DNA of 64,000 nucleotides from assembly GCA_022841985.1 (NCBI GenBank), contig JALHQL010000006.1:16-64015 (forward strand), read 5' to 3'. Source of the DNA: Minisyncoccota bacterium. Its GTDB lineage: Bacteria > Patescibacteriota > Minisyncoccia > Phycocordibacterales > Phycocordibacteraceae. Below, piece by piece: positions 4,642-55,292 of the stretch. Made by a program: the position numbers and the translations under genes. Position 1 is the first letter of the stretch. Each line of letters opens with the position of its first letter. The notes under the pieces were generated by a model that worked only from the letters and a program-made list of their open reading frames with translations, searched no databases and was not told the origin of the DNA.

Positions 4642-5086
4642 GAATGGTGCCGCCGGCAGCAAGAAGTGCAGTACGTGCGCCAGTAGACACTGTGCAGCCA
4701 TCAACAATCAAAGCTTTCGTGAGAGAGCCAACGCCAAGAATCTTTACAATCGGTGCACGACCTTTTGCACGGCGTACCAAATCCTTTGCAAGAAGTGTCG
4801 CAGGCGAAATCGTCTCGCCGGCCTTATAGACCGCTTCAATGGCAGAGAGATTAACTACTGAAACGGGAAGGCGATTCGTTCGAACCGTACGTGCACGATT
4901 CTTTCCGTGGCCACGAAGCTTTGGGAGCTTCTTGATGAGATCCCGAGACTCTGGACGTATCTTGTGTCCAGCGCGTGCGGTCTGTCCTTTACCTCCGCGA
5001 CCGGAAGTCTTGCCACGCTTGCCGCCGCGGCCGACAGGTGGATTTTTTCTATTCTTAGTGCGAGGAGAAAATGTGTGGAGTTGCAT
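4634..5086 (-). CDS. rplO: 50S ribosomal protein L15
   Basis: GRGGKRGKTSGRGGKGQTARAG motif. Start trimmed to MQLHTF (cat at 5084-5086). Confidence 0.85.
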   Translation of the reverse strand: MQLHTFSPRTKNRKNPPVGRGGKRGKTSGRGGKGQTARAGHKIRPESRDLIKKLPKLRGHGKNRARTVRTNRLPVSVVNLSAIEAVYKAGETISPATLLAKDLVRRAKGRAPIVKILGVGSLTKALIVDGCTVSTGARTALLAAGGTIHA

Positions 5087-5096
5087 ATATAAAATA

Positions 5097-5741
5097 TTAT
5101 TTCGCACGAAGCTTCTTGAGCGCTGCGACCGTTGCGCGAGCAATGGTGAGCTTATTCTTAGAGCGAGAGTGTATCTTAGTTACCACATCCGTCACCCCAG
5201 CAAGATCGAGCACTGTACGCACCGCTGAGCCAGCGACAAGACCTCGACCCTTCGAGGGGATGATTTCAACAGTGGAAGATGCGTATTTCATTGAAACTTG
5301 GTGTGGAATTGAACCTGAGGCCGTGCGAGGAACGACAAAGAGATGTTTCTTTGCATCGCGCGTCGCTTTATCAACGGCAAGAGCAGTATCAATTCCCTTC
5401 CCAAGACCGACTCCTACGCGACCCTTACGGTCACCGATAATAATCACAAGACTGAAATTAAAACGGCGGCCGCCGGCCATCACGCGAGCAACACGTCTCG
5501 CATCAATTGTTACTTGTTCGAACTCTCCGCGCTCACGTGGTGGACGAGCACGACTGCCTGTACGCGAAGCACGACCACGCTGAGATCCGCGAGCGCGAGG
5601 TGTGGCGGTCGCCGCAATAGGAGATGCCTCAGCGGAAACAGCTTCGGCCGACTCAATCTCACTGTCAACAGCACTATCAGCTGCGACCGGCTCAGCATCG
5701 TTCACTTTCTGTATAATCTCTGGTTCCATCGACATAGTCAT
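5097..5741 (-). CDS. rpsE: 30S ribosomal protein S5 with an acidic N-terminal extension
   Basis: GRRFNFSLVIIIGDRKGRVGVGLGKGIDTALAVDKA is the S5 dsRBD/S5 domain-2 signature. Confidence 0.9.
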   Translation of the reverse strand: MTMSMEPEIIQKVNDAEPVAADSAVDSEIESAEAVSAEASPIAATATPRARGSQRGRASRTGSRARPPRERGEFEQVTIDARRVARVMAGGRRFNFSLVIIIGDRKGRVGVGLGKGIDTALAVDKATRDAKKHLFVVPRTASGSIPHQVSMKYASSTVEIIPSKGRGLVAGSAVRTVLDLAGVTDVVTKIHSRSKNKLTIARATVAALKKLRAK

Positions 5742-41171: not shown

Positions 41172-41579
41172 TTGCCCCTACCACTTATAATTGATGCGAT
41201 GAGGGAAACCCAGAGAAAAGGAGACGTCGCTGTTTCGCAAGCGATTGCAACATTTACAAAAGCGGGTTATGACGTCTCTGTTCCCCTTACAGAATCAGCT
41301 GCATATGATTTAATCGTGGAGAGGGACGGATTGATAAAACGGATACAGGTAAAATATTCGACTAGTGGAGAGGTTGACCTTCGTAGAATTCATTCAAACT
41401 CGACTGGGTATGTTGTTAAGAAGCCTAAAAAAGGCGCTTATGATTGGATTTACGTCTTTAAAGCCCTCTCTGAAAAAGAGTATCTTATTATCGACTGCCC
41501 TTTCGGTCGGCGGTCGATAACACCTGGAGTTCAGCATTCTATTAAAGTCGTACTGAAACAATTAGGAGGGGTCGCATAG
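41172..41579 (+). CDS. small PD-(D/E)xK-like nuclease-fold protein (Hjc-type or restriction-endonuclease-like). Tentative.
   Basis: AAYDLIVERDGLIKRIQVKYS fits a D...E-x-K core. Its 3' end overlaps the tRNA-Ser 5' end by about 15 nt. Confidence 0.35.
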   Translation: MPLPLIIDAMRETQRKGDVAVSQAIATFTKAGYDVSVPLTESAAYDLIVERDGLIKRIQVKYSTSGEVDLRRIHSNSTGYVVKKPKKGAYDWIYVFKALSEKEYLIIDCPFGRRSITPGVQHSIKVVLKQLGGVA

Positions 41580-41653
41580 TTGGTCTAGTGCAGTGGACTT
41601 GAAATCCACCGTACCGTAAGGTACCGCGAGTTCGAATCTCGCCCCCTCCGCCA
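41565..41653 (+). tRNA. tRNA-Ser (anticodon TGA) with encoded CCA. Integration target of the adjacent island.
   Basis: ggagggg...cccctcc acceptor, anticodon loop ctTGAaa, long variable arm cgtaccgtaaggtaccg, T-loop ttcgaat, then gCCA. Confidence 0.85.
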
Positions 41654-43147
41654 AAATTGGAAATCGGAATTGGAAGCCGAAATGGGGTCGGCGCGAAGCG
41701 CCGACACAAACGCATTCCCGCCAAGAATTCCCGAATTCAAAAGGTTTTTCCACGCTCCGCGTGGCTCAAAAAAGACGGTTCGATCCTTAATTTGAAAGTT
41801 CGAACCGACTTTTTTGTACAAATGAAGTTTTTCTTCATTTGTACACTCGTTTGCCAATTCCATATTGTATTTCAAAAACTTTTCGGTAAGTTCGAACCGA
41901 TTATTCGCTTTTTGCTCAAAAGCCGATAATTTCTCTTTGAGAAGCTGTTTAGAGCTAACCAAGGCATTTTTGGCGTCGCGATATTCTTCGAGCGACAAAG
42001 CGTTTTCGAGATAAGCATTCATCAGCTTCTCAATCTTGGAATTCAAAAGAGAAATATCGGCTTTTGTTTTGTCTGCAAAAAGCGTAGACGATTGGGCTTC
42101 ACTCAACATATCTTTTCTATTTTCCGCCAACATCCAAGAAGCCCAATCGTCGGGCAAAGAAACTTTTTTGATTTCCTTTTGAATTTCTGAAGTGATGATT
42201 TCTTCGCGACTATACTTTTGTGCGCAAGGATTTTTCCGTTTGGTACATCGCAAATAGTTATGACCTTTCTGCGTTTCGGTGGTAATGAAGCAACCACATT
42301 CTCCGCAACGGAAAAATCCTCTGTACAAAAATGGTTTCAATCCTCGCGACTTCGGTTTAGATTTTCTCATCATCACTTCCTGAACAAAATCAAAAAGTTT
42401 CTTTGTGATAATCGGTTCGTGCTTTCCCTCAAAAATCTCACCATTATATTTCATCAGTCCTGTATAGATAGGATTTTTGAGAAGTTTTTGATAATTCGAC
42501 ACCGCAAGTTCCTTTCCGCTTTTTCGTTTCAATCCAAGTCCGTTAAATTTGTCGCGAAGCTCCCGCAAAGTGAAAGACCCAGACGAATATGCCTCAAATG
42601 TTTTCTTGATTAAGGGTGCGATATTTTTATCAACAACAATTCTCCCGCCGACATTTAGATAGCCAAGTGGAGACATTTGAGGCCATATTCCGTCTTTCAC
42701 TTTGTTTCGCTTACCACGCTTTATATTCTCACTAAGGTTATCTACATAATACTTGGATTGCGAAAAAGCGATGGAAAGCATGAATTTGCCTTGCGGTGTC
42801 GGATCACACCAGAAAGTTGGAAATTTTAGCTCGGCAAGTTTTTCCGTATCGAGCAAGTAGATAATTTTTCCACCATCAACACTATTTCTCGCCAATCTGT
42901 CGGGATGCCATGCCAAAATCCCATTTGCTTCGCCTTGCTCGATACGGAGAAGCATTTCATTAAATACTGGCCGACCTGGTGCTTTAGCAGTTTGTTTCTC
43001 TACAAAAATATCTACCACCTCGATTTGTTCTTTAACCGCCAACTCTTTGAGTTCGGCCAGTTGATCGGAAATGCTTCTCACTTGCCGATCCTCTGTATCG
43101 GTTGATTTGCGAGTGTATATAAAAAACTTTCTGGTGTGATTATTCAT
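41585..43147 (-). CDS. large serine recombinase (resolvase/invertase catalytic domain, recombinase domain, zinc ribbon)
   Basis: FIYTRKSTDTEDRQVRSISDQ (catalytic Ser region), GILAWHPDRLARN, zinc ribbon CGECGCF...YLRC. Start trimmed to MNNHTRKFF at 43147. The open frame continues through IR1-L and antisense through the tRNA, so the true C-terminus is uncertain. Confidence 0.8.
   Translation of the reverse strand: MNNHTRKFFIYTRKSTDTEDRQVRSISDQLAELKELAVKEQIEVVDIFVEKQTAKAPGRPVFNEMLLRIEQGEANGILAWHPDRLARNSVDGGKIIYLLDTEKLAELKFPTFWCDPTPQGKFMLSIAFSQSKYYVDNLSENIKRGKRNKVKDGIWPQMSPLGYLNVGGRIVVDKNIAPLIKKTFEAYSSGSFTLRELRDKFNGLGLKRKSGKELAVSNYQKLLKNPIYTGLMKYNGEIFEGKHEPIITKKLFDFVQEVMMRKSKPKSRGLKPFLYRGFFRCGECGCFITTETQKGHNYLRCTKRKNPCAQKYSREEIITSEIQKEIKKVSLPDDWASWMLAENRKDMLSEAQSSTLFADKTKADISLLNSKIEKLMNAYLENALSLEEYRDAKNALVSSKQLLKEKLSAFEQKANNRFELTEKFLKYNMELANECTNEEKLHLYKKVGSNFQIKDRTVFFEPRGAWKNLLNSGILGGNAFVSALRADPISASNSDFQFWRRGRDSNSRYLTVRWISSPLH
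41648..41767. repeat. IR1-L, a 120-bp inverted repeat whose outer end is the tRNA-Ser 3' terminus (CCGCCA)
   Basis: Exact reverse complement of 43170-43289, checked base by base. Confidence 0.9.
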
Positions 43148-43169
43148 AATATTGTATTGGCAAACGAGT

Positions 43170-43289
43170 GAGCCACGCGGAGCGTGGAAAAACCTTTTGA
43201 ATTCGGGAATTCTTGGCGGGAATGCGTTTGTGTCGGCGCTTCGCGCCGACCCCATTTCGGCTTCCAATTCCGATTTCCAATTTTGGCGG
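43170..43289. repeat. IR1-R, inverted copy of IR1-L, ending in GGCGG
   Basis: Perfect 120-bp match to the reverse complement of 41648-41767. Confidence 0.9.
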
Positions 43290-43558
43290 TGTGTATTGGA
43301 CGAAGTTCGAATGTATTTCGGACAAAATCCGCAGGATTTTGACGACTAATCGCACGCGCGGAGCGCGTGGTGGCTTGAAACTGCATTGTACGCTCCGATA
43401 CTGTGCCAACACGAACGAATGCGCCTCGGACACGCTCGCGGACTCGCGTGTGCAAAAACCAAAAAATTTCCTTGCATTTTTCTCGCGTCTCCTCCCCCCA
43501 CCCCTCCACCGCGAAGCGGAAAAAGAAATGGAAAGGAAATTTTTGGTTTTGCTTCGCC
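43285..43558. repeat. IR2-L, a 274-bp structured repeat starting at the shared GGCGG core
   Basis: Reverse complement matches 49219-49492 almost exactly. It has internal hairpins (cacgcgc-gga-gcgcgtg, caaaatcc-gcag-ggattttg) and an internal inverted copy of ggaaatttttggtttt. The ORFs predicted inside it are artefacts of repeat DNA. Confidence 0.85.
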
Positions 43559-43662: not shown

Positions 43663-43872
43663 ATGGCAAAATCCACAGCACAAAAATTTGGTGAGAACAT
43701 GAAAAAGATACGGCTCGAAAAAGGTATGTCGCAAGGCGACATTTGCCGTGAGTTAGGGTTAGACCGAGCGTATATTAGTAATGTTGAGAATGGCAAACAA
43801 AATCTTACCATTAGCACAATGGAAAAGGTCGCCAAGGCGCTGAGTGTGAGTATTGATATACTTCTGAAATAA
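43663..43872 (+). CDS. XRE/Cro-type HTH protein, probably the controller (C) protein of the restriction-modification system
   Basis: 69 aa. MSQGDICRELGLDRAYISNVENGKQNLTISTMEKVAKAL. Directly upstream of the M and R genes. Palindrome ttgagtcaa lies about 40 nt upstream. Confidence 0.65.
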   Translation: MAKSTAQKFGENMKKIRLEKGMSQGDICRELGLDRAYISNVENGKQNLTISTMEKVAKALSVSIDILLK

Positions 43873-43879
43873 TAATCAT

Positions 43880-45544
43880 ATGGCAAAGTTAAAAGACACC
43901 CCAAAACATGATAGACCTCGCGAGAAATTTCTCGAAAAAGGAAGCGACGCTCTGACCGACAGTGAGTTGTTGGCTATTTTGCTTGGAAGCGGTATCAAAG
44001 GAACCAACGTCAAATTACTTGCACAAAAAATATCTCGAAAATTTGGTGACAAGCTCATGGATGCGACAGTGGAGGATCTCGTACAGATTCCGGGTATCGG
44101 AAATGCCAAAGCTCTGCAAATTGCCTCAATGTTTGCACTGGCAAATCGAATGTATGAAAAGCACAACGGGGATGAGGAGCACAAAGTATTATCGGCGCTT
44201 GATGCAGCACGATTAGTCCCCGAATTAAAAACCGCAAAAAAGGAACATCTGGTTTGTCTTTACCTTAATGCACGAAGTGTATTGGTTCACAAAGAGATTG
44301 TTTCAGTTGGCACATTGGACAAAAGTATTATTCACCCCCGAGAAGTTTTTGCGCCTGGACTTGAAAAGCACGCCGCGAGCGTCATAGTTATTCATAATCA
44401 CCCATCAGGCGACCCTTCACCGAGTGACGAAGATAAACAAGTTGCCGCTCGAATTGTCGAAGCAGGCAAAATTGTCGGTATCAACGTACTTGATTTTCTT
44501 ATTATCGCGGAGCGAGGTGTACACAGCATTCTCGCAGAGTTGCAAAAAGTTGAGCCGAAAGCAACCGATTATGTTGCCGAAGGCAACCAAGGATCACTTT
44601 TTGATCTGCTTGTGGATTCTCGCCATATGTATTTTCTCGGAGTAAACGATAAAGCACCCGAACCTATAACAAAAACCAAACATAAGTTTATCGATCTCTT
44701 TGCAGGTATTGGTGGTTTCCATGTTGCCTTTCATAATGCGGGCGCTGAATGTGTGTTTGTGTCCGAATGGGACGAAAAAGCGCGAACTACGTACAGACAC
44801 AACTTTTATAAAGTATCTCCCGATATATTTAGAAATGGCAATTTCGTTGGCGATATCACTAAGGTGAACGAAAAAGAAATGCCTGATTTTGACATCATTA
44901 CGGGCGGCTTTCCTTGCCAGCCATTTTCACAAGCAGGTTTCAAGAAAGGTTTTAATGAAGCACGCGGCACATTGTTTTTTGATGTAGTTCGCCTTATGAA
45001 AGAAAAGAAACCTAAGGCATTTTTCCTTGAAAACGTGCGGGGTCTTTACGCACACGATGGAGGAAAAACATTTGAAACAATTAAGCGCATCATTGAAGAA
45101 GATCTCGGCTATTCATTCCATGCAAAAATCATTAAAGCATCAGATTTTGGTATGCCACAACACCGTCCGCGTTTGTTTATGGTCGGTTTCAGGGACGGAC
45201 ATGATTTTGAATGGCCCGAACCAGTCAATGAATTGAAATACACAATGTCCGATATTTTCGGTGGAAAGTGTAATAAAGATGTCGGCTTTACACTTCGTGT
45301 AGGAGGTCGCGGAAGCCAGATCACTGATCGACGCAACTGGGACGCGTATCGCGTGGATGGAAAAGTAGTCCAGCTCGGACCTAAAGAGGGCTTGAAAATG
45401 CAAGGATTCCCCGAGTGGTTTGAGTTTCCTGAAGATGTATCGTCAGTACAGTCTATGAAGCAGCTCGGCAACTCTGTCGCTGTACCTGCAATTCAAGCTG
45501 TTGCGGAAAGAATAATTGAAACACTAGAAAAATATGACAAATAA
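43880..45544 (+). CDS. fusion protein of an N-terminal RadC-like JAB/MPN domain and a C-terminal C5 cytosine DNA methyltransferase
   Basis: RadC HhH (VQIPGIGNAKALQI) and JAMM motif (IVIHNHPSGDPSPSDED). MTase motifs I FIDLFAGIGGFHVAF, IV GGFPCQPFSQAG, VI ENVRGL, VIII QHRPRLFMVGF, X KQLGNSVAVP. Confidence 0.8.
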   Translation: MAKLKDTPKHDRPREKFLEKGSDALTDSELLAILLGSGIKGTNVKLLAQKISRKFGDKLMDATVEDLVQIPGIGNAKALQIASMFALANRMYEKHNGDEEHKVLSALDAARLVPELKTAKKEHLVCLYLNARSVLVHKEIVSVGTLDKSIIHPREVFAPGLEKHAASVIVIHNHPSGDPSPSDEDKQVAARIVEAGKIVGINVLDFLIIAERGVHSILAELQKVEPKATDYVAEGNQGSLFDLLVDSRHMYFLGVNDKAPEPITKTKHKFIDLFAGIGGFHVAFHNAGAECVFVSEWDEKARTTYRHNFYKVSPDIFRNGNFVGDITKVNEKEMPDFDIITGGFPCQPFSQAGFKKGFNEARGTLFFDVVRLMKEKKPKAFFLENVRGLYAHDGGKTFETIKRIIEEDLGYSFHAKIIKASDFGMPQHRPRLFMVGFRDGHDFEWPEPVNELKYTMSDIFGGKCNKDVGFTLRVGGRGSQITDRRNWDAYRVDGKVVQLGPKEGLKMQGFPEWFEFPEDVSSVQSMKQLGNSVAVPAIQAVAERIIETLEKYDK

Positions 45545-46625
45545 AACTAAAACAACTCTCACAGGTAACAAAGGCGAATGGTCTGAGTTCTATGCCTTTA
45601 TTAAAATCCTGACTGACGGGAAAGTTTTTACTGCTGACAAAAATCTAAAAATCCTTGAGGAACATTTTCATATTGTCCTAAAAATTATCCGACAAGAAGC
45701 GATTGGAAAGAAAGAATACGACATCTCAAGAAACGATGGCAAAGTTATTGTATCTGATGAAAATGCAGAGATATCAATAATTGATCTTGAAAAAATCAAA
45801 GGGAGTGTCGCCAACGTTTTTGAGCAAATTAAAAATTCCAAAGGCACGACATTTGAAGTCGCGAGCGCGGCAAGTCCGATGCACGATCTTCACTGTACTC
45901 AAATGCGTGCTTCGAGTGGTAAAAAAGCCGACTTGACCATTGTTCTGCATGATAAAAAATCTCCCGAATTCCCAGAACTCGGTTTCAGTATCAAATCAAT
46001 GCTCGGTTCTCCGGCAACACTCCTAAATGCTTCTGGTGCTACAAATTTTCTATACCGCATTGCAACAGAAGATAATAAGCCCGTACAAAGTAGTGATGAT
46101 ATGTCGGTGAGAGATGCGACAAAACTGACGTATGGTGTCGGTGCACAACTTGAGTTTATTGGAATGGATAGCGATGTTTTCCGTCGTAATCTGCGAAAAA
46201 TTGATTCCATATTTCCCGAAATAGTTGCTCAAATGTTGCGACATTACTACATGGGAGAAGCGACTACAATCAATGATCTCGCAAACAAAATTGCAGATGA
46301 TTCCGTCTTTATGGAGCGAATCGACTTTACCAAAGAAATGCTGATAATGAACATCAAACGTTTCCTATCAAGCATTGCCCTCGGAATGATGCCAAGCAAA
46401 GATTGGGACGGATACACCGAAGCGCATGGCGGATATATCATCGTTAAAGAAGACGGTGATGTTGTCTGCTACCATCTCTATAACCGCGACAAATTTGAGG
46501 ACTATCTATTCCATAACACAAAACTCGATACGCCTAGCACTACTCGTCATGGATTTGGGAAAATCTATAAAGAAAATGACGAACAAAGAATGAAGCTTAA
46601 TTTACAAATACGATTTTTGAAATAA
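45534..46625 (+). CDS. probable cognate type II restriction endonuclease (363 aa). Family not assignable by eye; an HpaII-like family is possible.
   Basis: Start overlaps the MTase stop (ATGACAAATAA). Size and position fit an R gene. No catalytic motif is confidently identified. Confidence 0.45.
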   Translation: MTNKTKTTLTGNKGEWSEFYAFIKILTDGKVFTADKNLKILEEHFHIVLKIIRQEAIGKKEYDISRNDGKVIVSDENAEISIIDLEKIKGSVANVFEQIKNSKGTTFEVASAASPMHDLHCTQMRASSGKKADLTIVLHDKKSPEFPELGFSIKSMLGSPATLLNASGATNFLYRIATEDNKPVQSSDDMSVRDATKLTYGVGAQLEFIGMDSDVFRRNLRKIDSIFPEIVAQMLRHYYMGEATTINDLANKIADDSVFMERIDFTKEMLIMNIKRFLSSIALGMMPSKDWDGYTEAHGGYIIVKEDGDVVCYHLYNRDKFEDYLFHNTKLDTPSTTRHGFGKIYKENDEQRMKLNLQIRFLK

Positions 46626-46803
46626 AAAATTGCCAGATGTTGTGTAAGCAAGACAATCGAACGAAGTTGGGGAAATAAGCCACAAAGCGAAAAGTGCTTG
46701 ATTTGTATTGATAAGAGAGTAATCCTTACTTTGGCGCTTGACTCCTTATTTTAAGGCGCGTATAATAGATACGCGGTTATTTATTTTACTTATCAATCAA
46801 TTT

Positions 46804-47031
46804 ATGGAAGAAAAATCATCGGTAAATAAGTCAAAAATTGAGAAAAAGATGAACGTTATCATTTCTTTGCTTTTGAAAATTGCAAATGATGGGGGTACGG
46901 TAAGTCTAAAAGAGCAAGTGCGTGACCTTGCCTCATTTGGTTTGGATTCAGCAGAGATTGCCGAAATTACAGGTAAAAAGGTGGGGCATGTTAGTAAAGA
47001 ATTATCAGTATTAAAAAAGGAGAGTAAATAG
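46804..47031 (+). CDS. mini HTH protein 1 (75 aa), first of four tandem paralogs
   Basis: MNVIISLLLKIA...FGLDSAEIAEITGKKVGHVSKEL. Lrp/AsnC-like or sigma70-region-4-like HTH. Confidence 0.5.
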   Translation: MEEKSSVNKSKIEKKMNVIISLLLKIANDGGTVSLKEQVRDLASFGLDSAEIAEITGKKVGHVSKELSVLKKESK

Positions 47032-47034
47032 CCT

Positions 47035-47256
47035 ATGGAAAACAAAAATGACATTTTACAACAAGTCTCGAAGAAACTGAGTATTTTAATCGCACTCCAG
47101 CTTCAGGGTGAGAATAAAGTGGTTGAGGTAAAAGAAAACGTGGAAAAACTTTCCAGATTCGGACTTACAGACAGTGAGATCGCAGAAATCCTCGGCACCA
47201 CAGCAGGTACCGTATCAGTTGCTAAAGCTAGAATTAAAAAAGCTAGATCAAAATAA
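47035..47256 (+). CDS. mini HTH protein 2 (73 aa)
   Basis: LSILIALQLQGE...FGLTDSEIAEILGTTAGTVSVAKARIKK. Starts 3 nt after the paralog 1 stop. Confidence 0.5.
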   Translation: MENKNDILQQVSKKLSILIALQLQGENKVVEVKENVEKLSRFGLTDSEIAEILGTTAGTVSVAKARIKKARSK

Positions 47257-47259
47257 AGT

Positions 47260-47436
47260 ATGGCAAAGAATAAACAAAATCGTGATCCCCTTGAAGACGT
47301 GCGAGAAACTCTAAAAAGTATTCTCGTACTAGAATTATTTAAGTTAAATATTCCGCAGGTGGATATTGCTAAAAAGTTGCGAATGGACTTAAACGCGGTG
47401 AATGCCTTCCTGAAAGGAATTAAGAAAGATAAATAA
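47260..47436 (+). CDS. mini HTH protein 3 (58 aa)
   Basis: LKSILVLELFKLNIPQVDIAKKLRMDLNAVNAFLKGI. Below the ORF-track size cutoff. atg at 47260, taa at 47434-47436. Confidence 0.4.
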   Translation: MAKNKQNRDPLEDVRETLKSILVLELFKLNIPQVDIAKKLRMDLNAVNAFLKGIKKDK

Positions 47437-47437
47437 T

Positions 47438-47602
47438 ATGGGTAGAAAAACTAAAAGCGAAAAACTGGAGCCTTTGGAGGAGATTAAACGACTACTTGTT
47501 CTCGGGCTTATAAATCAGGGCGTAAAAGGAAAAGACATCGCCGCCATTCTGGAGGTTGATCCAGCAATTATTAGTCGTTTGATTTCATCTACGAAAAAAT
47601 AG
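47438..47602 (+). CDS. mini HTH protein 4 (54 aa)
   Basis: IKRLLVLGLINQGVKGKDIAAILEVDPAIISRLI. atg at 47438, 1 nt after the paralog 3 stop. Confidence 0.4.
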   Translation: MGRKTKSEKLEPLEEIKRLLVLGLINQGVKGKDIAAILEVDPAIISRLISSTKK

Positions 47603-47605
47603 TAT

Positions 47606-48184
47606 ATGGCAGACCGACTCAACCCCGACATTATGGAGGTACTCGTTAAGAAGACGGATAAGACAGCCGAACAAATTCGTCCGCGCCTCTCTGAACTTCG
47701 TCGCAAGTATAGCGGTCTCACAATGAACGCTGCTGCTCAGATGTACGCACAATCGCACGGCACTTCCATTATGACGAAGCTTGACCAAGGCGACCGACAA
47801 TCGCTCGCTACGGTACAAGCAATTACTCAAGTGAGCGTATCCAGCGTTTCAAAGGTAGATAAACGCACGCTAAATATAAATAACTCGCCGATACATAACC
47901 TTTCATTTGGTGACCGAAATCAAATAAATCAAAGTGTTGTGACGCTCGACAATGCACTCACTGAGTTATCTGAAAAAATCAGCAAAAGCACAGTACTGAC
48001 TGACGACGAAAAGAATGACTACAAGTCTGATATACAAACTATTGCAAGTCAGGCTGGAAAAAGTAAACCGAACAGGCAAATCATCAAAGTAGCATGGGAG
48101 AGCGTTAAGGCGCTTGCGGACATAGAAGGCTTTGCCCAATTGGTCGGCAGGATTACTCCGCTTATTCAAGGATTTTTTTCATAA
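47606..48184 (+). CDS. hypothetical protein (192 aa), upstream partner of the HEPN-like protein
   Basis: Stop at 48184, next start at 48186. The N-terminus resembles the mini-HTH proteins weakly. Confidence 0.45.
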   Translation: MADRLNPDIMEVLVKKTDKTAEQIRPRLSELRRKYSGLTMNAAAQMYAQSHGTSIMTKLDQGDRQSLATVQAITQVSVSSVSKVDKRTLNINNSPIHNLSFGDRNQINQSVVTLDNALTELSEKISKSTVLTDDEKNDYKSDIQTIASQAGKSKPNRQIIKVAWESVKALADIEGFAQLVGRITPLIQGFFS

Positions 48185-48185
48185 T

Positions 48186-48887
48186 ATGTCTCAACGCCTT
48201 GATCCAATTCTATTAAAGAAACTTGCCGATAAAATTGGTAAGTCCATCAAATATACGCGCGAGCAAAATGCCAAACGTGCTTCAAGAGCGGGCGTTTCTT
48301 CCGAAGCCTATTTTTTATATTGGCTGAAAGAAAAGAAAATTGGCTTTCAAAAGTACAAGCGTTCTTTGCCTGTTGATGTTCAAAACGAAGCAAGAACACT
48401 CACAGGCACTCCACAACACACAACAAGCACCACATCTAATCGTGTGGGACACACCGAAACACTCACTGCTTCATCGCGCTATATCGATTTACTCGAAATG
48501 ATTCAGGATGATGAGCTTAGAGATAGATGTGCGGATCTTATAAAACGACCAAGGAATCATGACAGAGTTTTTAGAGAAGCCACAACTATTCTTGAACATC
48601 GGGTCAAGAATTTGAGTGGTATTACACAAAGAATGAACCCGCAAGCATTAATTGGGAAAGCAATTGCGCCTGATCCTGCGCGAGCTATTTTAGTGGTCAG
48701 CAGTGATTCCAGTGAGCAAGAAGGTTTTTACAAAATTTGCGCTGGTATTGAAGCAGCATTCCGCAACCGCACCCATCATGAAGTCTCGAACAAGCTCACA
48801 CGTAATGACGCGATAAAATTTTGTGGCTTCATTGACTCACTGTTACTTGTGCTTGTTAATGCAGAAGTACATCAAGAACGGATTTAG
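48186..48887 (+). CDS. protein with a C-terminal HEPN-like (Abi_C / TIGR02391-like) domain. Candidate abortive-infection RNase.
   Basis: C-terminal EQEGFYKICAGIEAAFRNRTHHE contains R-x4-H. Start atg at 48186. Confidence 0.45.
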   Translation: MSQRLDPILLKKLADKIGKSIKYTREQNAKRASRAGVSSEAYFLYWLKEKKIGFQKYKRSLPVDVQNEARTLTGTPQHTTSTTSNRVGHTETLTASSRYIDLLEMIQDDELRDRCADLIKRPRNHDRVFREATTILEHRVKNLSGITQRMNPQALIGKAIAPDPARAILVVSSDSSEQEGFYKICAGIEAAFRNRTHHEVSNKLTRNDAIKFCGFIDSLLLVLVNAEVHQERI

Positions 48888-49218
48888 CTAAAGGGAGCCG
48901 TCCACGTCAGTGGACGGGCTTCTGTGCGCGCATAGGGTGGGTGGGGCAAGCACATACAGATTTGTTTGTGCCCTAGCACAATCCATTTTTCTTTGAGTAA
49001 CTACTAACCTCTCTCGAAGTCACTGAGCGAACGCACACAACGCCGAAGCAGCCAGCGCGAGCGAATGCGAGCGGGCTATGTGTAGGCGGTTGTGTGTGTT
49101 CGCGGACGTTAGAGCTACTACTAAACGTCGCTATGGCACGCGCCTCGGTCGCCACAAGGAAATGGAGCAAACGGGCTTCAATGTGATAACTTTGTTGCCC
49201 TTTGTGGAGTTTCCTTGT

Positions 49219-49492
49219 GGCGAAGCAAAACCAAAAATTTCCTTTCCATTTCTTTTTCCGCTTCGCGGTGGAGGGGTGGGGGGAGGAGACGCGAGAAAAA
49301 TGCAAGGAAATTTTTTGGTTTTTGCACACGCGAGTCCGCGAGCGTGTCCGAGGCGCATTCGTTCGTGTTGGCACAGTATCGGAGCGTACAATGCAGTTTC
49401 AAGCCACCACGCGCTCCGCGCGTGCGATTAGTCGTCAAAATCCTGCGGATTTTGTCCGAAATACATTCGAACTTCGTCCAATACACACCGCC
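49219..49492. repeat. IR2-R, inverted copy of IR2-L, ending in CCGCC followed by A
   Basis: 274 bp. Base-by-base reverse complement of 43285-43558. Confidence 0.85.
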
Positions 49493-49672
49493 AGAAGTCC
49501 GAGTTAGAACCAAAGCAAAGTAAGGGTTTTAATACAACTAAACTCAAAATAAAACATCCATCTAAAATATGGGTGTTTTGCTTATTGGTGGCACTTATCC
49601 ACAATAGGGCACTTTACAAGAAAGAGATAATTGTATAGGATCATACTATCACTTAACAGCTATCATTAATTT

Positions 49673-51340
49673 ATGAAAAACACCGAGGAAAATAAAATTG
49701 AAACAATAGACATTACTCCCGATAAAAGCATTTATCACAAAATCGGGGAGGCAAATTACTCGATTTCTGACGCACTCGCAGAATTAGTGGATAACTCAAT
49801 TGATGCCGCAAATGACAATGGTGTCGAGATTTATATCGTTTTAGACAAGAAAGACGAGAAAATTGTCATTGAGGACAATGGAAAGGGAATGAGCAAAGAA
49901 ATAGCTTCAAAAAGCTTGGTACTAGCCCATTCTAAAAAGCACGAGGCACTAGGTGAATTCGGTTTGGGACTAAAGTCCGCATGCACCAGTTTAGGAACAA
50001 TCTTTTCTATAACAAGTACACCTGAAGGTTCTGAAGAAAGATACTCTCTTGAATATAATAAGGAACAATTTTTAAAATCAGATGACTGGCATCATTACCC
50101 TCTCGCAATATCAAAAGCTCCAAAAAATGAACACGGAACAAGAATAGAAATCAGTAATTTGCGAATAAAATTATATGACGCTCAAGTAACACGTCTCAAG
50201 GATGACTTAGCTAAAAGATATGGACCATACATTGAACACAACAATGTTGTCATTAAAGTTGGTTTAAAAAGAGAGACGGCAAAGCCTTGTGTGCCAAGTG
50301 AAATTAAACTCGTTGAAGGTTCGAAGAAAGAATTTTCATACATGCTCTCAAAAGGAGCCACCATTACAGGTTGGTATGGTTTATCAGAGGTCGGATCACA
50401 AAAACAAAGTGGTTTTAATATGTTTCGTAGGGGGCGTCTTATACGATCATCGGAAAAGCTTGGTTATAATTACCACCCACATCTAATGAGTATTGTCGGA
50501 GAAATTAATTTGGACTCCGTCCCAGTCACACATAACAAACGAGAATTTATTATTGAATCAGGGGAATTCAAAGAGTTTATTAAAGAATTCTGGGGTGATC
50601 AGACCGAGAAATATTTAGGCCAAAAAGTGAAGGGAATGATTGATGAAGTAACAAAGACAGCTAGAGATCGATCAAACCAAGAAAAAGCTGATAGCATGCC
50701 GACTGAAAAGAAAGAGACTATAAAAAATAACTTATTGAATGCTCTTAACCGACTAGACGAATTCAAAGAGCTGGCCTATCCAGATCTGTATCAACCTAAA
50801 AAAAGGTCTGCGAGCGGAAAAGAGGACCCAAAAGAATCAAGAGAAACTGATTTACGTGTAGCCAGGGAGGAAGAAATCAAACCTACAAAAGAGGAGGAGA
50901 GGGATCAGAGAACGCCCAAAAAAACACAACCAAAAACGGCCAAATTTATCATGGTTGGTGGAAAAAAATTCAAATTCGATTTCTTTTTGAAGAATTTGGC
51001 AAATGACACCATCGACAAAGAGACAGTTATCAATCAGGAAAACGTTATTGAAATATACATTAATACGGGATTTAAAGGTTACGGCTTGACGAAAGATTCT
51101 GATTTTTATTCTACTTTCCACATAGCAGAGGCGATTGCTGAACTTTATGTTAAAGAAGCTGGTCAAAAAATGGAAAGGGTCTTTGAATTACGAAACGGTC
51201 TTATATATGAAGTGGCGTCGTTAATCTATGAAGAAGAAGAGTATAAGAAACTAGAGAAGACTGAAAAAGAACTAGTCGCAGTAACTGAAAAGAGGAAAGA
51301 GTTGGAAGAAAAAAGAACAAGAACAAGTTTAAAAATATAA
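49673..51340 (+). CDS. GHKL-superfamily ATPase (HATPase_c_3, prokaryotic MORC-like) with a charged coiled C-terminal region
   Basis: N-box ELVDNSIDA, G1 IEDNGKGM, G2 GEFGLGLKSA. Confidence 0.75.
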   Translation: MKNTEENKIETIDITPDKSIYHKIGEANYSISDALAELVDNSIDAANDNGVEIYIVLDKKDEKIVIEDNGKGMSKEIASKSLVLAHSKKHEALGEFGLGLKSACTSLGTIFSITSTPEGSEERYSLEYNKEQFLKSDDWHHYPLAISKAPKNEHGTRIEISNLRIKLYDAQVTRLKDDLAKRYGPYIEHNNVVIKVGLKRETAKPCVPSEIKLVEGSKKEFSYMLSKGATITGWYGLSEVGSQKQSGFNMFRRGRLIRSSEKLGYNYHPHLMSIVGEINLDSVPVTHNKREFIIESGEFKEFIKEFWGDQTEKYLGQKVKGMIDEVTKTARDRSNQEKADSMPTEKKETIKNNLLNALNRLDEFKELAYPDLYQPKKRSASGKEDPKESRETDLRVAREEEIKPTKEEERDQRTPKKTQPKTAKFIMVGGKKFKFDFFLKNLANDTIDKETVINQENVIEIYINTGFKGYGLTKDSDFYSTFHIAEAIAELYVKEAGQKMERVFELRNGLIYEVASLIYEEEEYKKLEKTEKELVAVTEKRKELEEKRTRTSLKI

Positions 51341-51341
51341 A

Positions 51342-52754
51342 ATGAGTCAGACCCTTAAGCGAGCAAACGAATATTTTGGGGTAACTGAGTCTGACTATAA
51401 GAAGACTGGCGCATTTAATCCGGTCATCGGTGTAGACAGCTTATTTTTTGTAGATCCGCTACTGCTCTCTAAAACAAGAATACCTGAGTTCAAGGATGCT
51501 CAAAAAGAGGTGCGTGATTATTTTGCTAGTGTCATCACACTTATCAGAAGTGGTAATCAAAAAGCAAAAGCACTAGCTCACAAGAAACTTATTTTAAGAG
51601 AGGTTAGGGGTATCGGCATAGGTTACGGTAGTACATCTGATGATGGTTCCGCCATTGGTCCAAAACTTGCAAAACGTTTGTTAAATACTGCAGAGGAACT
51701 CATCCAGATGGGTATTACCGATCCAGCCATCTTTGAAGTCATGGGTCTTTTTGAGGAAGATTTTGGGCCAGATCGACTTAGTGACGGCTTGACACGCATT
51801 CTTCTCAAACGCGTCTGCCAATATTCTGAACGAATCACGAAAGAACTCAAAATTATAGATACATATACACTAACTACTTATGAGAGAAAGTACACTCTAA
51901 CAAAACACCCCCTTAAAGATGGGCCTTTGCTTTTCGTGCCCCAAGGCATATTGCGAGATCTCCCGATAGCGAATAGTTTTGAGGAGATTAGTGTAGTTGC
52001 AATTTTTAATGAAGATCTGAGAAAGAAATTTAATTCTATTCTGGCATCCTGTTTTGCTGGAGATAAAAATAAAAAGCCCAAGAAATCTGAAATTAAGAAA
52101 TATCTCCTAGAAACGAAAGATGGAATCAAAACAGTTGTTGCGGCATATCAGTCATGTAGTCCTGAATCGTATAATTTTGACACCGATCCTTCTGGTTTAT
52201 ATCTGTGGCTTGAGAAAGCAAAACAGTTAGCTCGTGAGAACCCAATTTCACTTCCATCAAAACCAAAACAAGGTGATATTGATGATGTGGTACAGAAAGT
52301 TATACAGGCATTTAAAAGAGGAATTGAATCTAAGGGTTGGTGGAAATCACTTTATAACGAGAGTAAGGAATCACTGAATGAAAGCCACGCAAGACATTTC
52401 TTTTATGCAACCGCGCTCTTGTATTGCGAAGCATGTGATATTGATATTTCACCCGAATCAAATGCTGGTCAAGGTCCAGTAGATTTCAAATTGAGCCGTG
52501 GTCACAAAAAGATAGTTGTTGAAATAAAATTAACTTCAGGACATGTTCGACAAGGTTATGAAAAACAAACACGAATATATGAAGAAAGTGAAGATGCTGA
52601 AGCTAGTTATTTCCTTGTTGTTCAAGTAACAGAGAAAAGTAAAGTTCTGCAAAAGGTGCTTAAAATGGAGGAAGTGGAAGAAAAGGAGGGTAAAAAACAC
52701 CCGACAATCGTAGTTGTGGATGGGCGAGAGAAACCGTCAGCAAGTCACGCCTAG
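51342..52754 (+). CDS. partner protein (470 aa) with a C-terminal PD-(D/E)xK nuclease-like motif
   Basis: GQGPVDFKLSRGHKKIVVEIKLTSG fits PD...(E)xK. Start is 2 nt after the GHKL stop. Confidence 0.5.
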   Translation: MSQTLKRANEYFGVTESDYKKTGAFNPVIGVDSLFFVDPLLLSKTRIPEFKDAQKEVRDYFASVITLIRSGNQKAKALAHKKLILREVRGIGIGYGSTSDDGSAIGPKLAKRLLNTAEELIQMGITDPAIFEVMGLFEEDFGPDRLSDGLTRILLKRVCQYSERITKELKIIDTYTLTTYERKYTLTKHPLKDGPLLFVPQGILRDLPIANSFEEISVVAIFNEDLRKKFNSILASCFAGDKNKKPKKSEIKKYLLETKDGIKTVVAAYQSCSPESYNFDTDPSGLYLWLEKAKQLARENPISLPSKPKQGDIDDVVQKVIQAFKRGIESKGWWKSLYNESKESLNESHARHFFYATALLYCEACDIDISPESNAGQGPVDFKLSRGHKKIVVEIKLTSGHVRQGYEKQTRIYEESEDAEASYFLVVQVTEKSKVLQKVLKMEEVEEKEGKKHPTIVVVDGREKPSASHA

Positions 52755-52924: not shown

Positions 52925-53106
52925 CGTCACCGCCGCGAAGCGGAAAAAGAGGAAAGGAAATTTTTGGTTTGCCTGCGCGAGTCCGCGAGCGCGGTCGAGG
53001 CGCGTTCCAGCGCAATCGGAGCGTACGCTTCGGGTTCAAGCCACCACGCGCTCCGCGCGTGCGAAGTGGGTTCGAGCAAAGGTGATACACTCACCGCCTC
53101 AAAAGA
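52925..53106. repeat. third, degenerate IR2-family copy, ending in CACCGCC
   Basis: cgcgaagcggaaaaagaggaaaggaaatttttggttt...gcgcgagtccgcgagcg...ccaccacgcgctccgcgcgtgcg...caccgcc aligns to IR2 with indels. Confidence 0.6.
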
Positions 53107-53685: not shown

Positions 53686-53760
53686 GCCCCCGTCGTTCAA
53701 CGGATAGGACGCGAGCTTGCGGAGTTCGTAATCGAGGTTCGATTCCTCGCGGGGGCACCA
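53686..53760 (+). tRNA. tRNA-Arg (anticodon read as GCG) with encoded CCA
   Basis: Acceptor gcccccg/cgggggc, D-arm gttc/ggac, anticodon loop ttGCGga (G37), T-arm cgagg-ttcgatt-cctcg, then aCCA. Confidence 0.6.
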
Positions 53761-54261: not shown

Positions 54262-54371
54262 TTTCAGTCGATTCGCGTTTCTCAATCAAAGCCCCAAGTG
54301 GAATTCAATCCGCTTGGGGCTTTCACTTTTTCTAAGTGATATTGTGCGAAGTATGGTGTTACACTTTCCTT

Positions 54372-55292
54372 ATGGATGCTGAGGCGGCAAAACGACAGTT
54401 TCTTGAATATATCGAGATTGAACGCGGCCGTGCAGTAAAGACTATTGAGAATTATGACCGCTATCTCACCCGCTACTTCACCCAGATGAAGATACAGAAC
54501 GTAAGCGGCATTAGCGAACAGAGTATTCGAGAGTTCCGCCTCTGGCTCAATCGGCAGCCGGGTACGGCTGCCGATTCCATGAAGCGCCGCACTCAGAATT
54601 ACTACATGATTGCACTCCGCGCCTTTCTCAAGTTTCTCCGAAAACGCGATATTGCTGCCATTTCTCCTGAGAAAATAGAGCTTGCGAAGCTTCCTGAGCG
54701 ACAACTTGACCTTATTACTTCTGCCGAACTAGAACGTCTTATACAAGCACCTAGAGAAGCATTTAAGAAAGAAAAAGACCCTGACAAAGCAAGGTCCTAC
54801 TTGCGAGATACTGCGATTCTCGAACTATTATTCTCCACCGGTCTGCGCGTCTCCGAGCTCTGTGCACTCAATTCTGATATTGATTTAACGCGCGACGAGG
54901 TTTCGGTGCGCGGCAAAGGCGAGAAAGTCCGTGTCGTATTCCTCTCCCCTACTGCGAAGCAGGCTGTACGCGAATACCTCAAGGCAAGAAATGACATGGA
55001 AGAAGCTTTGTTCGTAGATGGCAGACCAAACAAATTGCACCGCATCATCCCCCGCGACGTCCAACGGCATTTGAAATCATATGTAGCGCGGGCGGGTATC
55101 ACAAACGTCGTTACGCCGCACACCCTCCGTCACGTCTTCGCCACAGATCTTCTGACTAATGGCGCCGACATCCGCTCTGTCCAACAACTCCTCGGTCATG
55201 CTTCCATCAACACGACCCAAATTTACACACACATCACTGACTCGCACCTACGAGAAATCCATAAAAAATTCCACGGACAGAAACGCACATAA
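54372..55292 (+). CDS. tyrosine site-specific recombinase, XerC/XerD-like
   Basis: N-terminal SAM-like domain, and the catalytic C-terminus HTLRHVFATDLLTNGADIRSVQQLLGHASINTTQIYTH. Confidence 0.8.
   Translation: MDAEAAKRQFLEYIEIERGRAVKTIENYDRYLTRYFTQMKIQNVSGISEQSIREFRLWLNRQPGTAADSMKRRTQNYYMIALRAFLKFLRKRDIAAISPEKIELAKLPERQLDLITSAELERLIQAPREAFKKEKDPDKARSYLRDTAILELLFSTGLRVSELCALNSDIDLTRDEVSVRGKGEKVRVVFLSPTAKQAVREYLKARNDMEEALFVDGRPNKLHRIIPRDVQRHLKSYVARAGITNVVTPHTLRHVFATDLLTNGADIRSVQQLLGHASINTTQIYTHITDSHLREIHKKFHGQKRT

Follow-up and report, generated by a model that had tools for sequence, protein, structure and literature searches.

Within a 64,000-nucleotide stretch of contig JALHQL010000006.1 from a Minisyncoccota bacterium (hereafter the window), two adjacent genes encode a 192-aa protein, P1, and a 233-aa protein, P2, the latter ending in a HEPN domain. 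An earlier note, made from the sequence alone, had presented them as a two-gene toxin-antitoxin (TA) or abortive-infection (Abi) module. That boundary proves wrong: the conserved transcription unit comprises six genes, running from a promoter through four genes for miniature helix-turn-helix (mini-HTH) proteins to P1, P2 and a hairpin. The constant partner of P1 and of P2 is the upstream mini-HTH array, which the note had left out, and the partner assignment made there needs revision. Our best explanation, held with modest confidence, is that the locus forms a modular cassette for defence or addiction, regulated by HTH proteins, equipped with a HEPN effector and located in an island that also bears a restriction-modification (R-M) system. 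Loci of this type, i.e., a mini-HTH array followed by one or two proteins that share an N-terminal domain (NTD) and carry interchangeable C-terminal modules, are recurrent and apparently undescribed.

By its sequence, the C-terminal half of P2 is a HEPN domain of the Ymh/TIGR02391 type, i.e., a predicted RNase toxin. The protein consists of the NTD (residues 1-75), a disordered and variable linker (76-95) and the Ymh-type domain (about 96-233), and its AlphaFold2 (AF2) model has a predicted local distance difference test score (pLDDT) of 86.8. The Pfam model PF09509 (Hypoth_Ymh), whose gathering score is 25, matches residues 108-220 with 52.4 bits (E 5.9e-14), spanning model positions 4-116 of 119, and a precomputed match to it exists for 113 of the 114 P2 homologs found. 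The earlier note had quoted EQEGFYKICAGIEAAFRNRTHHE, residues 177-199, for its R-x4-H; read from the sequence, this predicted catalytic motif is R193-N-R-T-H197-H198 (codons 48762-48779, plus strand). Taken by itself, R-x4-H is uninformative: it arises in 47% of shuffles of P2 and is present in 28 of the 83 open reading frames (ORFs) of at least 150 aa in the window. In P2 it rises above chance because of the PF09509 match and because F192, R193, H197 and H198 (F192-R193-x3-H197-H198) are invariant in an alignment of 50 homologs reaching down to 33% identity. In the same alignment, D108, L111, R114, D126, T133, Q178, G180 and G187 are also invariant, and FRxxxHH, EQxG and DRVFREATT are invariant or near-invariant. 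The HEPN call of the earlier note is correct, the HEPN nature of Ymh having been known since 2013. Its label, Abi_C/TIGR02391-like, survives in part: in the profile searches that it had proposed, PF09509 places P2 in the Ymh/TIGR02391 HEPN family, but Abi_C (PF14355) gave no match to P2 in a Pfam search with E up to 1, and TIGR02391 of NCBIfam scored 28.2 bits, under its cut-off of 39.45. Several P2 homologs nonetheless carry a TIGR02391 label from JGI. Solved structures searched by sequence with the P2 family profile returned nothing, even at E 10. In two samples (L037, positions 4739-5444, and L038) a P2-like gene is split identically into a 96-aa NTD-only ORF overlapping a 147-aa HEPN-only ORF, followed by more mini-HTH genes and a split ~290-aa protein, and HEPN-only clusters of 147-158 aa exist too (P0108, P0110).

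P1 (47606-48184, plus strand, ATG to TAA) and P2 (48186-48887, plus strand, counted from its ATG) are real genes, both under purifying selection, and the ORFs are as the earlier note described them, the P2 start included. The proportions of nonsynonymous (pN) and synonymous (pS) differences are 0.04-0.15 and 0.5-0.95 for P1, and 0.05-0.08 and 0.5-0.6 for P2. The two proteins are diverging about equally fast (84% and 85% identity, respectively, to locus L009; 92% and 91% to L015). A longer P2 start (TTG at 48132, 251 aa) was rejected because the N-termini of homologs align at the equivalent Met, encoded by the ATG. The junction reads TAAtATG, and its 1-nt spacer is consistent with the translational coupling that had been proposed for the pair.

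This pair is the distal part of a tightly packed operon in which each of the five intergenic gaps measures 1-3 nt. A sigma70-type promoter, TTGACT-17 nt-TATAAT, matching 11 of 12 consensus positions in a promoter scan, lies at 46738-46766 on the plus strand, and its -35 and -10 boxes and the 5' untranslated region (ACTTAnCAATCAATTT-ATG) are conserved in L014, L015, L016, L004, L024 and L030. A perfect palindrome with 7-bp arms, CGCGTAT-5-ATACGCG, covers the -10 box (46757-46775); it has this single match in the 64-kb window and is a candidate operator. Its arms change compensatorily, to CGTGTAT/ATACACG in L016 and GCCTAT/ATAGGC in L015, and L024 carries an analogous AGGTAT/ATACCT pair. The four mini-HTH genes follow on the plus strand: sHTH-1 (46804-47031, 75 aa; E 4e-15 with the hidden Markov model of these proteins, the sHTH HMM), sHTH-2 (47035-47256, 73 aa; sHTH HMM E 1.5e-18), sHTH-3 (47260-47436, 58 aa; ORF call, family membership and sHTH HMM) and sHTH-4 (47438-47602, 54 aa; HTH_23 E 0.0027 and sHTH HMM). 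A 97-aa ORF starting with TTG at 46738 is probably sHTH-1 over-extended into the promoter. The most conserved of the four is sHTH-4, which is 81-87% identical in seven distant loci, Lloydbacteria included. The operon likely ends at a GC-rich hairpin with a weak T tract, 6 nt past the P2 stop (48893-48923, plus strand; -26.3 kcal/mol, z = -2.3), which a terminator scan did not flag.

The mini-HTH proteins form one family, in that 65 members from 20 loci fall into a single BLAST-connected cluster, and they resemble the HTH domains of sigma70 region 4, LuxR and CRP-type regulators. Pfam Sigma70_r4_2 is matched by 14 of 19 family members (best E 7.8e-7); for sHTH-2, a region-4-like HTH protein, the match is sub-threshold (E 3.6e-4). 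Matches in the Protein Data Bank include sigma-H, region 4 of SigR and an archaeal regulator.

P1, which the earlier note had described as a protein of unknown function, turns out to be related to P2. The first ~70 residues of both proteins are homologous (HHalign probability 98%, E 1.5e-13), and the AF2 models show the same helical N-terminal domain in each. No Pfam model matches this NTD, and it shows no profile similarity to the mini-HTH proteins; the idea that these are NTD-only paralogs was rejected (HHalign probability <1%). In P1 the NTD (residues 1-72, 47606-47821) is followed by a conserved segment (73-107) and a 4-helix C-terminal domain (CTD, 108-192), and the AF2 model has a pLDDT of 77. 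The segment that precedes the 4-helix bundle is invariant and poorly modelled (...RTLNINNSPIHNLSFGDRNQ...): residues 73-107 (window 47822-47926) are the most conserved stretch of the protein, with pN of 0-0.02 and pS of 0.75-1.0, and AF2 gives them a pLDDT <50 and only a short beta-hairpin. Related proteins carry GINIxNIxGVxxxGDxNxVN at the corresponding position. The segment may fold only upon oligomerisation or partner binding. An overlapping DNA or RNA element was rejected as the source of this conservation because synonymous sites there are saturated while pN is near zero, and Rfam gave no match. An amyloid-signalling relay between P1 and P2 was likewise rejected: BASS systems (Bab/Agp) are recognized by a short amyloid motif that the products of two neighbouring genes share (bioRxiv 10.1101/2024.11.07.622273), whereas P2, with its variable linker, has nothing equivalent to the conserved beta-prone segment at P1 ~85-107.

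An exhaustive phmmer search among 1.84 billion representative proteins showed that P1 is separable. The NTD also heads other C-terminal domains, namely a Swt1-like HEPN domain in P0296 (54 bits) and a ~150-aa unknown domain (e.g., in L020). Among these NTD proteins with other C-terminal domains, HEPN_Swt1 is matched only by P0296 and, marginally, P0354; the L020-type domain, with its KDANDKTHS motif, was tried as a Ymh-like HEPN and rejected for want of profile similarity. The CTD, for its part, occurs alone or behind a winged-HTH (wHTH)-like domain in ~225-aa proteins. That group, which matches PADLOC PDC-M14B, is found in a type I R-M/GmrSD operon, flanked there by hsdM and hsdS, and elsewhere next to an IS110 element or to resolvase and RadC genes.

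The comparison of 45 related loci, about 40 of which include sequence upstream of the NTD gene, identifies what is constant in this arrangement. In every locus with upstream sequence, the sHTH HMM finds 1-6 mini-HTH genes directly upstream of the NTD protein, and in complete loci the arrays number 3-6 genes; it finds no mini-HTH genes alongside the CTD-only relatives of P1. The P1-P2 succession is far more restricted. P2 (at least ~70% identical) follows P1 only in the window's own clade (L001, L002, L009, L010, L014-L018), where the two are always neighbours, and P1 occurs without P2 in L003-8, L011-13, L019, L021-25 and L028-30, alone or with other partners in Lloydbacteria and Zambryskibacteria. 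Conversely, six independent contexts (L033, L035, L036, L037, L043, L044) contain P2-like proteins with 35-50% identity but no P1. Because each occurs without the other, P1 is not a dedicated antitoxin or sensor of P2, the role for which the earlier note had made it a candidate. Furthermore, in P0018, P0020, P0021, P0023 and P0024 the HEPN domain is ~84% identical and the NTD is replaced by a second variant, and wherever the operon partner could be traced (P0018, P0021, P0023) it is a P1 that retains the first variant.

The slot that follows the array and the NTD gene holds various genes, many of them of defence type. P1 is followed by a wHTH-Schlafen/AlbA_2 protein (SLFN_AlbA_2) in L024 and L030, by a protein with two transmembrane (TM) segments together with HsdS in L012, L021 and L023, and by a protein joining the NTD to the unknown domain in L020. 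Two of the six contexts with P2-like proteins but no P1 add Schlafen or Shedu-like genes: L043 reads controller protein, R-M system, three mini-HTH genes, P2-like gene, one mini-HTH gene and Schlafen/AlbA_2, and L044 reads four mini-HTH genes, P2-like gene and a Shedu-type SduA_C nuclease, with a serine recombinase nearby. In Lloydbacteria (L003-L008, L013, L029), a six-gene mini-HTH array plus P1 stands immediately downstream of rpoC-dnaG-rpoD. In L009, a contig of 1.8 Mb, rpoD lies ~3 kb upstream of the cassette. This repeated nearness to the gene of the primary sigma factor may be meaningful, since the small proteins are sigma-region-4-like, or it may be a coincidence.

The immediate surroundings of the operon in the window are also defence-like. 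The GC content drops from about 0.50 to 0.38-0.44 between a tRNA-Ser (41565-41653) and a tRNA-Arg (53686-53760), and the operon lies within this ~12-kb segment, which has recombinase genes at both edges; the earlier note had rightly placed the pair inside an island. On the minus strand, a large serine recombinase with Resolvase, Recombinase and Zn-ribbon domains (41565-43267) ends inside the plus-strand tRNA-Ser(tga), a probable integration edge because the GC content drops at that point, and a tyrosine recombinase (54336-55292) lies just past the tRNA-Arg(gcg). Directly upstream of the operon, as in L043, is an R-M system, here a complete one of the CCGG type (43880-46625), in which a 554-aa protein joins UPF0758-N/RadC-JAB to a C5 cytosine methylase (Dcm) and its gene overlaps that of an HpaII-family endonuclease by 11 nt (45534-45544). 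It is preceded by a 69-aa HTH_3 controller-like gene at about 43663-43872, placed by 100% DNA identity to L001. Downstream, at 49673-52754, a paraMORC-like GHKL ATPase (matches to HATPase_c_3 and Morc6_S5, and weakly to MzaB) is coupled to a 470-aa PDC-M36A-like protein. The ATPase lies ~0.8 kb from P2, a proximity that may be non-accidental because Ymh HEPN domains are known fused to paraMORCs. Near-identical strains are without this block, and where an operon nearly identical to that of the window occurs in other samples, the genes after it differ (255 aa, TspO, cupin), identity breaking at ~48954. Near the mini-HTH cassette of L030, a 37%-identical homolog of the M36A protein is found (1181-2575).

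A non-coding repeat of ~135-275 nt stands at 43284-43558, 49219-49493 and 52930-53066, is also present in L014, L015 and L020, and follows the operon in other metagenomes. Inverted ~275-nt copies bracket the block formed by the R-M system and the operon, direct copies (79-90% identical) bracket the MORC-like/PDC-M36A-like block, and the repeat has an internal inverted repeat of its own (49227-49251/49298-49322). It gave no match in Rfam and may be a cassette boundary, a miniature inverted-repeat transposable element or an att-like element.

If the locus is indeed a modular HTH-regulated cassette, its operation can be sketched from its anatomy and from what is general in the HEPN family. P2 would be a metal-independent RNase that acts as a dimer through R193/H198 and cuts cellular or phage RNA, leading to growth arrest. 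The mini-HTH proteins would act as repressors on the palindrome that covers the -10 box, or bind the NTD and keep the NTD proteins inactive, or both. A trigger, be it phage infection or the loss of the island or its R-M system, would then free the HEPN effector. P1 would serve as a second output or modulator module of the cassette. Several points weigh against such a defence or addiction cassette. The RNase activity of P2, its toxicity and any contact between mini-HTH proteins and NTD are inferences, and such a contact finds no sequence support, since the two lack profile similarity. P1 is 72-100% identical over >120 clusters while synonymous sites are saturated, which is unusual for a conflict gene. 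The Lloydbacteria combination of mini-HTH genes and P1 beside rpoD has no obvious effector and fits a housekeeping regulator equally. Lastly, no PADLOC model convincingly matches P2 (PD-Lambda-3_B 9e-5, Aga_HEPN 0.014).

A bolder proposal, which we regard as possible but doubtful, is that arrays of sigma-region-4-like mini-HTH proteins and an NTD adaptor define a family of modular cassettes, immune or regulatory in function, that had gone unrecognised and is widespread in bacteria of the candidate phyla radiation (CPR)/Patescibacteria and in other uncultured bacteria. In such a family, the NTD would couple interchangeable effectors to the HTH array. Ymh HEPN, Swt1-like HEPN and the helical bundle of P1 would be the NTD-fused effectors, and Schlafen/AlbA_2, the Shedu-type nuclease and small TM proteins would come from genes of their own immediately downstream. 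The ultra-conserved P1 would act as the core transducer, and its segment ~73-107 may fold only on assembly.

It is unlikely that the array and P1 are instead a housekeeping regulatory cassette of CPR-type bacteria, linked to transcription or RNA polymerase, with P2 as an accessory RNA-processing or regulatory HEPN protein rather than a toxin or defence effector. The extreme conservation of the P1 and sHTH-4 proteins while synonymous sites are saturated would suit such a role, as would the position after rpoC-dnaG-rpoD in Lloydbacteria, the nearby rpoD of L009 and the likeness of the mini-HTH proteins to sigma70 region 4. It also suits this role that P1 and P2 relatives are absent from the viral contigs searched (IMG/VR), where the sole match to sHTH-4 was a generic HTH ending a phage HNH-like ORF; PHROGs gave only weak generic HTH matches, and on these grounds a phage origin was rejected. 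However, in the window the cassette follows an R-M system and belongs to a low-GC island flanked by recombinases, its genomic position varies between lineages, and elsewhere it is followed by typical defence modules (Schlafen/AlbA_2, SduA_C, HsdS, TM protein). The shuffling of NTDs and effectors is typical of conflict systems, and R-M and Abi settings are on record for the Ymh family (PMC3710099).

We give little credence to pure addiction, in which the operon would secure the mobile island and its HpaII R-M system by post-segregational killing with no phage sensing, the labile mini-HTH repressors or antitoxins decaying after island loss and the HEPN RNase killing segregants. The inverted repeat copies that enclose the operon together with the RadC-Dcm/HpaII genes would agree with it, as would the large serine recombinase and tRNA genes at the island edge and the serine recombinases near L036 and L044, and an HTH antitoxin that autoregulates at a palindrome is canonical type II TA logic. 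Yet no mobile element is visible around the Lloydbacteria and L033 loci, plasmid or phage evidence is absent, and a simple module would not obviously need several HTH paralogs and two NTD proteins.

The weakest reading, which we consider improbable, is a classical type II TA pair in which P1 is the antitoxin, neutralising the HEPN toxin P2 by binding to it, and the small upstream genes are unrelated regulators: the 1-nt gap at the TAAtATG junction, the constant adjacency of P1 and P2 in the window's clade, their similar divergence and a common NTD that could mediate hetero-association are in its favour, but P2-like proteins keep their mini-HTH genes without P1, P1 lacks any HEPN partner in most of its loci so that no obligate pairing exists, single genes of the P1 CTD family lie in type I R-M operons and have no HEPN gene next to them, and a tight NTD-NTD fit is argued against because the P2 NTD was swapped in P0018, P0021 and P0023 while the partner P1 stayed unchanged.

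Ymh HEPN proteins are common in R-M and defence neighbourhoods, and an operon with clear partners offers a concrete system in which to study them. That a mini-HTH array plus NTD recurs in lineages very far apart, while the effectors change, is a pattern that marks a modular defence system. The tiny genomes of CPR bacteria encode few recognised defence systems, and a cassette kept at 72-100% protein identity would inform CPR phage biology and the regulation of defence systems generally. The interest would rise should CPR bacteria turn out to use the cassette as a general modular system; if it is a housekeeping one instead, it would rank among the most conserved unknown operons in the radiation.

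Among known systems, the closest relation is to the Ymh family itself, which was defined as a HEPN family with a conserved Rx4-6H motif (Anantharaman et al. 2013, PMC3710099) and whose members stand alone, are joined to paraMORC, AbiJ-NTD1 or AbiTii, or lie within R-M operons (PMC3710099). The C-terminal domain of P2 matches the family model, retains the motif, adjoins an R-M system and lies close to a paraMORC-like ATPase; unlike the described architectures, it is fused to a ~70-aa NTD without a Pfam match and is preceded by mini-HTH arrays. In the literature searched, no functional or biochemical study and no solved structure of the Ymh HEPN family was found. By analogy with HEPN TA and Abi modules (AbiD/F/J/U2/V, RnlA, PrrC/RloC), with which the operon shares a predicted RNase effector with R-x4-H, small upstream proteins and a defence island, its logic is likely growth arrest. 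Unlike these modules, the operon has no match to an MNT nucleotidyltransferase, an ABC ATPase or Abi_C, the HEPN-MNT arrangement being sought through NTP_transf and MNT domains in P1 and the four small proteins (Pfam, NCBIfam), and it adds four sigma-region-4-like mini-HTH paralogs (elsewhere 1-6) and an NTD-sharing P1.

PD-lambda-3 of E. coli (Vassallo et al. 2022) acts by abortive infection (PMC13190303) and is listed with a PD-(D/E)xK nuclease domain (PMC10952713). The HEPN region of P2 matches PD-Lambda-3_B weakly (E 9.3e-5, 19.8 bits); the match is marginal and partial, and the operon differs in having neither a PD-(D/E)xK nuclease domain nor an equivalent of gene A. The PADLOC candidate PDC-M14 is approached from the side of P1: four PDC-M14B models match it over residues ~105-188 with their C-terminal ~85 positions (best E 3.2e-7), and relatives with this CTD sit in R-M operons and beside mobile genes. 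The match is, however, confined to the C-terminal third of the model, P1 has its NTD where those proteins carry a wHTH-like domain, and PDC-M14A matched none of the six proteins scanned with PADLOC, P2 and its neighbours. The architecture as a whole, a mini-HTH array plus NTD protein, was not found in Pfam, NCBIfam, PADLOC, PHROGs or the literature searched. In regulators of the BrxR/CapW type, single wHTH-WYL proteins stand upstream of interchangeable defence systems. The cassette resembles them in placing a conserved DNA-binding module with its own promoter and palindrome ahead of variable defence effectors, and differs from them in employing arrays of 1-6 paralogous HTH proteins of 52-85 aa, after which an NTD protein always comes first.

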